Positions 26,935 through 29,738 of a stretch of 46,844 nucleotides of DNA are shown one piece after another. The first letter of the stretch is position 1, and each line of letters begins with the position of its first letter. A program made the translations under genes and the position numbers. The notes below the pieces were generated by a model. The model did not search any database, had not been told where the DNA came from, and worked only from the letters and a program-made list of their open reading frames with translations. The DNA is from a virus (lineage: Duplodnaviria > Heunggongvirae > Uroviricota > Caudoviricetes): the IMG/VR virus record IMGVR_UViG_2534681940_000028; one strand, written 5' to 3'.

Positions 26935-27705
26935 ATGCATCGTATAGACACGAAAACCGCGCAGAAGGATAAGTTCGGCGCGGGTAAGAACGGTTTTACC
27001 CGTGGTAACCCCCAGACCGGCACGCCTGCCACCGATCTGGATGATGACTACTTTGACATGTTGCAGGAGGAACTTTGCAGCGTGGTGGAGGCATCCGGTG
27101 CCAGCCTGGAGAAGGGGCGGCACGACCAGTTACTTACCGCACTTCGCGCGCTGCTGTTAAGCCGCAAGAATCCGTTTGGCGATATCAAATCGGATGGCAC
27201 TGTGCAAACGGCTCTCGAAAACCTTGGTTTGGGAGAAGGCTCTGCATTACCTGTTGGTGTGCCTGTTCCATGGCCTTCAGCCACACCGCCAACAGGCTGG
27301 CTGAAATGCAACGGTGCGGCTTTTTCTGCTGAAGAATACCCGGAACTGGCAAAGGCTTATCCGACAAATAAATTGCCTGATTTACGTGGTGAGTTTATTC
27401 GTGGCTGGGATGACGGGCGCGGTATTGATGCAGGACGTGTTTTATTGAGCATTCAGACAGGGATGCTGGAAAAACACCGCCATATTGTTGTTGCCAATGA
27501 TGGTTACGACACAAAAGATGAATGGGAACTGGCTACGATTTTCAAAAAGACATACACACAAGGACGGGGACTTGATGCCACAAATACAGGAGGGAGTCTG
27601 ATCCCATCACCGACACTTCATTCACGAGGGAGTATCGGTAATACTGGCGGGAGTGAAACCCGTCCACGAAATATTGCATTTAACTATATCGTGAGGGCTG
27701 CATAA
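26935..27705 (+). CDS. tail fibre protein (constant N-terminus + currently expressed variable C-terminus)
   Basis: 256 aa; crossover site lies inside the gene at 27213-27239; Gly-rich fibre-like C-terminus. Confidence 0.7.
27213..27239. repeat. invertase crossover site (left; gix/pix-like)
   Basis: TCGAAAACCTTGGTTTGGGAGAAGG; core TTGGTTTGGGAGAAG is repeated inverted at 29103-29117. Confidence 0.55.
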
Positions 27706-28307
27706 TGGATAACGCCGTATTAAATAGCGAGCTTATTGCCACGAAGGCGGGGAATATTACCGTCTATAACTATGATGGTAAAACTCGGGAATATATTTCT
27801 ACTTCAAATGAATATCTTGCCATTGGTGTCGGTATCCCTGCATATTCCTGTCTGGATGAACCTGGTATACATAAGGCGGGTTATGCTATCTGCCGTTCGA
27901 TGGATTTAAACTCATGGGAATATGTGCCAGACCATCGCGGTGAAATCGTCTATAACACCGAAACGGGAGACGCCAAAGAAATCACAGCTCCGGGTGATTA
28001 TCCTGAAAATACAACCACTATCGCCCCGTTAACGCCATTCGATAAATGGGATGGTGAAAAATGGGTGACAGATACTGAGGCACAACACGGTGCCGCAGTA
28101 GAAGCGGCAGAAGCACAGCGCCAGTCACTGATTGATGCAGCAATGGCTTCCATCAGTCTGATTCAACTGAAATTGCAGGCCGGACGTAAACCGACGCAGG
28201 CAGAAACAACCAGACTTAACGCTGTGCTGGATTACATTGACGCGGTGACGGCAACAGATACCAGCACCGCGCCGGATGTCATCTGGCCTGAACTGCCGGA
28301 GGCGTAG
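27705..28307 (+). CDS. tail fibre assembly protein (current orientation)
   Basis: 200 aa; TAATG overlap with fibre gene. Confidence 0.7.
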   Translation: MDNAVLNSELIATKAGNITVYNYDGKTREYISTSNEYLAIGVGIPAYSCLDEPGIHKAGYAICRSMDLNSWEYVPDHRGEIVYNTETGDAKEITAPGDYPENTTTIAPLTPFDKWDGEKWVTDTEAQHGAAVEAAEAQRQSLIDAAMASISLIQLKLQAGRKPTQAETTRLNAVLDYIDAVTATDTSTAPDVIWPELPEA

Positions 28308-28731
28308 GCCATTCAATATCTGGCGCACTGGAGGTATCAACCAGCTCCAGTGCATCCAGATAATCCAGCCACAAATTATATTGCGCCAGTTCCTCACCTT
28401 TCAGACGACCAATAGCGGCTTTACCGGGCCATTGTTTACTGTTCATGTATTCGTTGGCCTGGTTAATTAGTAGCTGTCTTTCTGATTCAGTAATTTCAAT
28501 AAGTTCTTCATGCGTGGGTGGAGGAATATCTGCCCACGCAGGCAGCCCATCATCTCCGGCAATACGGATTTTTCCTTGTGGCGGTTCAGCCATAAACTCA
28601 CTGATAATATTTTGATTTACTTCCTTAGCGTCTGATAAATCCCATCCCTCTGATTTATATTTATCAATCATATCCACAGGGAAAAAAGCATTATGCCTTG
28701 CGCTATAAACATATTCATTCATATAAATCAC
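28279..28731 (-). CDS. tail fibre assembly protein (alternative orientation)
   Basis: 150 aa on minus strand inside the invertible segment; C-terminus parallels the + strand tfa. Confidence 0.65.
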   Translation of the reverse strand: MIYMNEYVYSARHNAFFPVDMIDKYKSEGWDLSDAKEVNQNIISEFMAEPPQGKIRIAGDDGLPAWADIPPPTHEELIEITESERQLLINQANEYMNSKQWPGKAAIGRLKGEELAQYNLWLDYLDALELVDTSSAPDIEWPTPPAVQAR

Positions 28732-28742
28732 CCTGAATAAAA

Positions 28743-29117
28743 TTACTCACCAACAGCCCACCAACTGTAATTCATCGATACCGTGTCGCTGGTTGATGAC
28801 GTTCTGTAAGCAGAATTAAAGCCGGTTAACGTTGGGCCTTCTGCAGTCATCACGAACCCTCGCCCAGCGCCTAAAGGCGCACCGCCATCACCAGAATGAG
28901 TAAGCATGGCGCAGTCCGCTTTTTTGGAGAAAGGGATGCTGAATGTAATTCTCATTGTTTGCGTCGATAATGTCGGCGTAACCGCACCACGACCATATTG
29001 CAGGATTTTCCCGTTGGGTAATTTCATCCATCCATCACCACTGGCAAAAGAGGCCATGTCCGGTATCTGATTTTCCCCTGTCCCCACATCCCGTTTTGCC
29101 GCTTCTCCCAAACCAAC
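28743..29117 (-). CDS. alternative tail fibre variable C-terminal segment (promoterless until inversion)
   Basis: Minus-strand frame opens at right crossover site; the LNVGLGE junction parallels ENLGLGE in the expressed fibre. Confidence 0.55.
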   Translation of the reverse strand, partial: VGLGEAAKRDVGTGENQIPDMASFASGDGWMKLPNGKILQYGRGAVTPTLSTQTMRITFSIPFSKKADCAMLTHSGDGGAPLGAGRGFVMTAEGPTLTGFNSAYRTSSTSDTVSMNYSWWAVGE

Positions 29118-29126
29118 GTTTAAGAA
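29092..29126. repeat. invertase crossover site (right; gix/pix-like)
   Basis: Inverted copy CTTCTCCCAAACCAA of the left-site core. Confidence 0.55.
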
Positions 29127-29183
29127 AATGCAGAGATTATGGCTAACTGGCATCATCCCCGGTTTTTACTCAGGGGAATGCTC

Positions 29184-29738
29184 ATGCTTATTGGCTATGT
29201 CCGCGTATCAACAAATAACCAGAATACGGAATTACAGCGTAATGCGCTGGAGTGTGCAGGATGTGAGCTGATTTTTGAAGACAAGATAAGCGGTACAAAG
29301 TCCGACAGACCAGGACTGAAAAAGCTGCTCAGGACATTATCGGCAGGTGACACGCTGGTGGTCTGGAAACTGGACCGACTGGGGCGCAGTATGCGGCATC
29401 TTGTCGTGCTGGTGGAGGAGTTGCGCGAACGAGGCATCAACTTTCGTAGTCTGACGGATTCAATTGATACCAGTACCCCAATGGGGCGCTTTTTCTTTCA
29501 TGTGATGGGTGCCCTGGCTGAAATGGAGCGTGAACTGATTGTTGAACGAACAAAAGCTGGACTGGAAGCAGCTCGCGCACAGGGACGAATTGGTGGACGT
29601 CGTCCCAAACTTACACCAGAACAATGGGCGCAGGCCGGGCGATTAATTGCATCAGGCGTTCCTCGCCAAAAGGTGGCGATCATCTATGATGTTGGTATAT
29701 CGACACTGTATAAGAAGTTTCCGGTCGGAGATAAATGA
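29184..29738 (+). CDS. pin: serine recombinase, DNA invertase (Pin/Gin/Hin family)
   Basis: 184 aa from ATG 29184; N-terminus [18 protein letters not shown] with catalytic Ser; C-terminal HTH; next to invertible fibre segment. Confidence 0.85.

Follow-up and report, generated by a model that had tools for sequence, protein, structure and literature searches.

The stretch of DNA analyzed here (hereafter, the window; IMG/VR virus record IMGVR_UViG_2534681940_000028; 46,844 nt) carries what we are highly confident is an invertible tail fiber switch of the Pin type, as known from the e14 element and phage Mu, within a near-complete prophage of Escherichia coli O157:H7. A short invertible segment bearing two opposed fiber cassettes lies between inverted crossover sites; the 5′ part of the fiber gene reads into the segment from one side, and pin, encoding a serine DNA invertase, lies on the other. 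Systems of this kind have been described before: the locus is an orthologue of the e14-type Pin switch, and its payload and context differ from those of e14.

Organization of the invertible segment

The locus has the layout of a fiber switch. The constant N-terminal part of the fiber is encoded outside the segment, two opposed sets of fiber C terminus plus chaperone are encoded within it, and both possible fusions are in frame, yielding fibers of 256 and 220 aa (Table 1). A preliminary description of this DNA had proposed a 1.9-kb segment with two such opposed sets, assembled in the orientation that expresses the plus-strand variant, with the invertase gene immediately outside as in the Mu G segment and in e14. 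Our analysis agrees on all of these points: the open reading frames (ORFs) and their Pfam domains delimit the two sets, the constant part continues in frame into the cassette with a Collar domain and a TfaE-type chaperone (cassette A), and a protein with Resolvase and HTH_7 domains is encoded directly outside the segment.

Table 1. Features of the switch locus, in coordinates of the window
Feature	Positions	Strand	Remarks
Constant 5′ part of tail fiber gene (aa 1-97)	26935-27225	+	Outside the segment; reads into whichever cassette faces it
Fiber A ORF, 256 aa	26935-27705	+	Spans left site; Pfam Collar 1.9e-15
Left crossover site, 26 bp	27212-27237		CTCTCGAAAACC TT GGTTTGGGAGAA; central TT at 27224-27225
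Invertible segment	27226-29114		1,889 bp between the two central dinucleotides
Variable fiber C terminus A (phage tail Collar domain plus tip)	27226-27705	+	In frame with the constant part in this assembly
Chaperone A (TfaE type, 200 aa)	27705-28307	+	Pfam Caudo_TAP 4.8e-32; RefSeq tfaE
Chaperone B (147 aa), silent cassette	28279-28722	-	Pfam Caudo_TAP 1.9e-31
Variable fiber C terminus B, silent in this assembly	28743-29114	-	Pfam Gp53-like_C 1e-11
Right crossover site, 26 bp	29103-29128		TTCTCCCAAACC AA CGTTTAAGAAAA; central AA at 29115-29116
pin, serine DNA invertase, 184 aa	29184-29738	+	Pfam Resolvase 9.2e-52, HTH_7 4.9e-13; RefSeq pinE
Enhancer-equivalent stretch, putatively Fis dependent	29202-29273 (pin nt 19-90)		Positional homologue of the P1 cin enhancer

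Because the left crossover site lies inside the fiber gene, where it encodes ..LENLGLGE.., the constant 97 codons are joined to either cassette A or the opposed, Gp53-like cassette (cassette B). The switch acts by gene fusion, not by promoter flipping; a scan for σ70 promoters found no promoter-like sites above chance within the segment. When the segment is flipped in silico, the constant codons run in frame into cassette B and specify the 220-aa fiber. This same fusion is annotated as a 663-nt coding sequence (CDS) in strain 119, which carries the flipped orientation. RefSeq names for the genes in genomes with an identical locus are tail fiber protein, tfaE, tail fiber assembly protein, gp53-like domain protein, and pinE.

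As annotated, the fiber B ORF does not stop at the segment boundary: it spans the right site and reaches 29153/29156 via a short leader outside the segment. This minus-strand ORF (28743-29156), which starts between the right site and pin, suggests another reading, namely, that the switch is kept mainly for the host: the ORF on the pin side would be expressed, and the truncated fiber would mask outer-membrane receptors, making the switch a phage-defense toggle. The layout is that of e14 stfE, and Kirigo et al. (2025; PMC12529663) reported that StfE2, a protein that arises when the e14 P segment inverts, blocks adsorption of phage T2. RefSeq also annotates the leader-fused ORF as a CDS in both orientations. 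We nevertheless consider this reading unlikely. It may be that the leader ORF is a by-product, since its frame must stay open through the crossover site and any upstream ATG will then serve as its apparent start; the leader found here (MMPVSHNLCIFLNVGLGE) and its e14 counterpart (MPFACYFFIFINVGLGE) share little beyond the site-encoded NVGLGE. No promoter-like site for the minus-strand ORF was found within 26800-29900. Ordinary fiber switching is a sufficient explanation, since the prophage is near-complete and has a full tail operon, and a T2-specific effect need not carry over, because the C termini differ from those of K-12. Beyond the layout shared with e14, the host-defense reading has no support here. 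We are similarly doubtful of a weaker form, in which the switch would serve the host in addition to the phage, with transcription from the pin side expressing the leader-fused fragment and toggling resistance to lytic phages; given that the cassettes differ, its specificities would be unlike those of StfE2.

Inversion among complete genomes

Evidence that the segment inverts comes from a comparison of genomes. We searched all complete E. coli genomes with a 2,901-nt query containing the switch region, counting a record if at least 80% of the query was covered in one place. The orientation of the window was present in 85 records and the flipped orientation in 80 (a ratio of ∼52:48), at 100% identity in all of the matches listed; matches to the flipped query included complete genomes with 100% identity over 100% of its length. 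The two sets are disjoint, because 80% coverage on a single strand is out of reach for a locus that lies the other way round. Carriers of the switch thus number ∼165 of 5,426 complete E. coli genomes. The preliminary description had proposed looking for both orientations in sequencing reads, with a lack of inverted reads, together with a lack of similarity to invertase crossover sites, counting against a switch; our comparison is the population-level counterpart of such reads, and on it the proposal stands.

The inversion can be followed most closely among cattle isolates designated strains 113 to 150, which include both orientations. We take these strains to be close relatives because their genome sizes are nearly identical and the locus lies at the same coordinates. 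Strains 113 and 119, which we take to be siblings, carry opposite orientations: across 22.9 kb that includes the locus, their 1,401 positional differences are all confined to 27239-29101, and after an in silico flip of 27226-29114, none remain. The inversion is therefore exactly conservative, with breakpoints inside the repeats, and it is recent and repeated.

These data also bear on whether the switch might be a fossil, with the segment locked in the source strain and the orientation polymorphism old and inherited. Defects elsewhere in the prophage do occur in related assemblies, including a frameshifted baseplate gene in FRIK944 and insertion of an insertion sequence (IS3) in strain 113. However, all components of the switch are intact in the window, and both orientations occur in 100% identical sequence, also within strains 113 to 150. 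An ancient, fixed polymorphism would have gathered linked differences, which is contradicted by the absence of any difference other than the flip over 22.9 kb; we regard a fossil switch as extremely unlikely.

For the e14 P segment, inversion is established by experiment. It shares the same repeat core (TTGGTTTGGGAGAAGG) and inverts under PinE (PMC12529663); its inversion has been observed by whole-genome sequencing and polymerase chain reaction (PCR) (PMC4272514), as well as by quantitative PCR, where it depended on PinE and on PinQ acting in trans (PMC12529663).

Crossover sites

A repeat search identified inverted arms at 27219-27238 and 29102-29121 (20 nt, 95% complementary, 1,863 nt apart). 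Within them is a perfect 15-nt core, TTGGTTTGGGAGAAG, at 27224-27238, with its reverse complement at 29102-29116. The preliminary description had located the left core correctly and the right core 1 nt off, at 29103-29117. It had described the crossover sites by these 15-bp cores; inverted crossover sites are indeed present, but the functional sites are 26 bp long. In each, two 12-bp half-sites flank a central 2 bp to form an imperfect dyad; the two sites have the same inner half-site (GGTTTGGGAGAA) and the same central dinucleotide, TT/AA. Sites of 26 bp, together with a remote enhancer containing two Fis sites, define the invertase subclass (PMC3798978).

All 26 positions of the left site agree with its e14 counterpart. 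At the right site, 55 bp 5′ of the pin start codon, 25 of the 26 agree; this site is also identical to the one in the P2-like phage 500465-1. Aligned with gixL/R and cixL as extracted from the Mu and P1 records, both sites show the gix/cix half-site pattern with a central TT/AA; the comparison with gix/pix sites that had been suggested as a check is therefore favorable.

A perfect 15-nt inverted repeat is in itself weak evidence: in shuffles of a 5.5-kb region, a repeat of this kind with arms at least 100 nt apart appeared in 29 of 3,000, and about 5 other such pairs exist in the 46.8-kb window. We take the repeat as real because it matches known invertase sites, because of its gene context, and because the segment is inverted among genomes. 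Other separated perfect inverted repeats of 15 to 17 nt include 15409-15425/20126-20142 and 29122-29136/31742-31756, one arm of the latter lying just to the right of the right site; such repeats are about as numerous as chance would give in 46.8 kb, and none of them looks like a site for an invertase.

At up to 3 mismatches, the left 26-mer matched only itself in the window, with 0 matches expected by chance. A multisite system of the Min or shufflon type was considered and rejected: searches with the 26-mer (≤3 mismatches) and with the core AAACCNNGGTTT (≤1 mismatch) recovered just two sites, and the scan of the window for extra sites yielded one further hit, at 16704, which is at chance level.

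The Pin invertase and a candidate enhancer

Pin is 94.6% identical to K-12 PinE, 82.1% identical to Cin, and 77.2% identical to Gin. The catalytic-serine motif GYVRVST, common to PinE, Gin, and Cin, is intact, and the C-terminal helix-turn-helix (HTH) is present; Pin has the features of a small serine recombinase (∼180 to 190 aa, a resolvase domain, a GYVRVS motif, and a C-terminal HTH).

In the P1 record, nt 19-90 of cin are annotated as the enhancer for Cin. The equivalent stretch of pin matches the cin enhancer at 56 of 72 positions and pinE at 63 of 72. Two degenerate Fis-type 15-mers, at 29206-29220 and 29254-29268 (pin nt 23-37 and 71-85), have centers 48 bp apart, and both are conserved in pin, pinE, gin, and cin. 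A strict Fis consensus finds the nt 71-85 site alone in pin, whereas the nt 23-37 site requires a degenerate consensus. It is plausible from these sequence matches that the stretch is a Fis-dependent recombinational enhancer; we grade this as plausible rather than demonstrated because the same stretch encodes the most conserved part of Pin.

Invertases of the Hin/Gin family bind their sites as dimers, assemble with a Fis-bound enhancer into an invertasome, cut at the central 2 bp of the sites, and rearrange the DNA by a 180° rotation. On this model, Pin dimers would bind the two inverted 26-bp sites, and the Pin-bound sites would join the Fis-bound enhancer in the 5′ end of pin to form an invertasome. 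Double-strand cuts would be made in both sites at the central TT/AA, half of the complex would rotate by 180°, and religation would leave the 1,889-bp segment inverted. With cassette A facing the constant part, the fused gene specifies the 256-aa fiber with a Collar-domain C terminus, accompanied by the TfaE-type chaperone; with cassette B facing it, the fused gene specifies the 220-aa fiber with a Gp53-like C terminus, accompanied by that cassette's own chaperone. Virions released from a population of lysogens would then carry one of two receptor-binding tips, the presumed purpose being to hedge host range.

Both orientations might instead arise without this Pin, whether by RecA recombination, by an invertase acting in trans, or as an assembly artifact, in which case the local pin would be irrelevant or inactive. 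Action in trans is documented: for the e14 P segment, the Qin prophage invertase PinQ is a stronger driver of inversion than PinE, although deletion of pinE in K-12 locks the segment (PMC12529663). In addition, O157 genomes hold further partial copies of the module, at a median of 2 places per genome and at up to 10 to 12 places when pin-like genes are included. The other observations favor site-specific inversion by a functional switch. The repeats are genuine invertase sites; pin has an uninterrupted ORF that retains the catalytic motif and the HTH; and the perfect repeat is just 15 nt (20 nt with one mismatch). Repeats of 15 to 20 nt are short for efficient RecA recombination, and they cannot confuse a long-read assembler. 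Finally, an exactly conservative inversion, with orientations near 50:50 over 165 genomes including presumed siblings, fits frequent site-specific switching. Taken as a whole, an origin of the two orientations without this Pin is very unlikely; among its variants, a trans-acting invertase is possible and RecA recombination is unlikely.

Several points nonetheless weigh against the Pin-driven switch that we favor. Catalysis by this Pin is not separable from the action in trans of other Pin-type invertases, such as PinQ. For the source strain, inversion is deduced from other genomes with an identical locus. Conservation of the putative enhancer is inseparable from protein-coding constraint. Lastly, in the interval from the right site to the pin start codon, the promoter scan found nothing resembling a σ70 promoter for pin; near the right site it returned nothing for either pin or the minus-strand ORF, and its total hits were at or below the shuffle expectation.

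The prophage and its surroundings

Many complete O157:H7 genomes match the 2.9-kb switch region at 100% identity, and the window is E. coli O157:H7 chromosome with a near-complete prophage at tRNA-Thr/proA. The prophage is ∼45 kb long, and its integrase adjoins tRNA-Thr and proA (the thrW prophage). Its early genes are lambdoid, its head is of the HK97 type, and its contractile tail is of the Mu type; lysis genes are also present. Baseplate genes of the Mu type, homologous to gp44-48, lie 5′ of the fiber gene, YmfQ being the gp48 homologue. The prophage looks near-complete, with its full tail operon, and K-12 e14 is a remnant of such a prophage type. A literature search on the switch of the O157 thrW prophage returned nothing specific to this prophage.

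Tail-to-tail with pin is a LEM-3-like GIY-YIG gene (29684-30622, minus strand). A run of T residues is 1 nt shorter in the window than in strain 113 (T7 to T6; indel at ∼29838-29843), a deletion that alters the C terminus of the GIY-YIG protein and lengthens its ORF into an overlap with the 3′ end of pin. Over 22.9 kb, the alignment of the window with strain 113 contains 8 gap openings, suggesting homopolymer errors in the window assembly.

Between the lysis cassette and the HNH/terminase genes (∼9037-9378, minus strand) is a gene encoding an iss/bor-type "increased serum survival" lipoprotein, a typical lambdoid moron on the strand opposite its neighbors. Positions 1-280 are not collinear with strain 113; they match the opposite strand ∼3.4 kb from the collinear position, at 94% identity, suggesting that the prophage early region, which differs between carriers, contains a rearrangement or a repeated element. 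The DNA 3′ of the prophage (∼31387-46844) encodes an AraC-family regulator, an integrase fragment from an insertion sequence, and a P4-like satellite element with a tyrosine integrase, ogr/Delta-like and polarity-suppression (Psu) genes, and a primase-helicase. Proteins of an ABC-three-component system and an AAA ATPase are also annotated in the satellite, and may be defense cargo.

Significance

Beyond correct annotation, the locus matters little. A subset of O157:H7 genomes carries an active e14-type fiber switch in a near-complete thrW prophage. Strains that match everywhere else will therefore show a 1.9-kb inversion between their assemblies, which should be taken neither for a mis-assembly nor for a phylogenetic signal. 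As a more complete relative of the degraded K-12 e14, the locus could be used to study the Pin switch in a functional phage; such a relative could show whether the phage-defense role claimed for the e14 P segment extends to other cassettes.

Comparison with known systems

The closest relative is the e14 P segment with its invertase PinE (Plasterk and van de Putte 1985; Mehta et al. 2004; both as cited in PMC4272514). The same pattern search finds exactly two sites in e14 of K-12 MG1655, the left one identical to ours and the right one with a single change in 26 positions; the genes also follow the same order: ymfQ, fiber, tfa / tfa′, fiber′, pin. In e14, as here, the repeat core (TTGGTTTGGGAGAAG(G)) lies inside the stf gene 3′ of ymfQ (PMC12529663), and DNA from 26347 to 27239 is 99.7% identical to e14 ymfQ plus the 5′ end of stfP. 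Cassette A is of the stfE/tfaE type: fiber A is 75.6% identical to the K-12 e14 fusion of the StfP 5′ part with the StfE 3′ part (StfP2 in the nomenclature of PMC12529663), and chaperone A is 88% identical to K-12 TfaE.

The two systems differ in location (tRNA-Thr/proA here versus icd for e14), in the state of the element (a near-complete prophage of ∼45 kb versus a 15-kb remnant), and in the gene 3′ of pin (the GIY-YIG gene versus mcrA). Measured alike, the segment is 1,889 bp here and 1,825 bp in e14; the perfect repeat core is 15 nt here and 16 nt in e14. The cassettes are not the same two as in K-12. The tip of fiber A (27457-27654) is replaced relative to e14, to which it has no blastn match, and cassette B (Gp53-like C terminus plus 147-aa Tfa) is different, its DNA matching e14 stfP/tfaP only at the tfa 3′ end; chaperone B is 54% identical to K-12 TfaP, over the C-terminal part. 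Because the cassettes differ, the locus is an orthologous switch with a partly different payload rather than a copy of the K-12 P segment.

The G segment of Mu and its invertase Gin show the same plan: Sc-Sv-U / U′-Sv′ cassettes lie between inverted sites, the invertase gene is directly 3′, Mu-type baseplate genes are 5′, and switching is by gene fusion. The sites have in common the half-site pattern ..AAACC NN GGTTT.. (Mu gix, TTATCCAAAACC-TC-GGTTTACAGGAA), but the central dinucleotide is TT/AA here and TC/GA in Mu (plus strand of the record, CTCGG / CCGAGG). The Mu segment is ∼3 kb with fibers of ∼500 aa, compared with 1.9 kb and 256/220 aa here, and no relationship is seen between the variable parts. 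The remainder of the prophage resembles lambdoid/HK97 phages, whereas Mu is a transposable phage.

The C segment of P1 resembles the locus in its cixL site (CAATCCTAAACC TT GGTTTAAGAGAA), which has the same central TT and similar half-sites, and in the annotated Cin enhancer at the equivalent position of the invertase gene. In P1, however, the invertase gene is on the other side, adjoining cixL and 5′ of the silent cassette, and the segment is ∼4.2 kb with long inverted repeats. Min of p15B has six sites and multiple inversions, compared with two sites here. Salmonella Hin/hix belongs to the same subclass, with 26-bp sites and an enhancer of two Fis sites in the 5′ end of the invertase gene (PMC3798978); Hin, however, flips a promoter and has its own gene inside the segment, whereas here the invertase gene is outside and coding sequences are fused.

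The module recurs in P2-like phages: NC_041848 (from O157:H43 T22), 500465-1, and pro483 share the left site, both cassettes, the right site, and most of the invertase gene, at 82 to 93% DNA identity over the whole module (window 27213-29722; homologous stretches at 3001-5492 of NC_041848 and 2993-5365 of NC_049342). Homology begins exactly at the left crossover site, 27213, whereas the constant fiber N terminus and the rest of these phages (a P2-type H protein and baseplate) are unrelated. The left site of NC_041848 has a degenerate outer half (TTCTCGCATACC). Judging by these alignments, the unit of site, segment, site, and invertase behaves as a module common to unrelated phage lineages, with the crossover site as its junction; invertase sites could thus serve as junctions for moving switch modules between such lineages.

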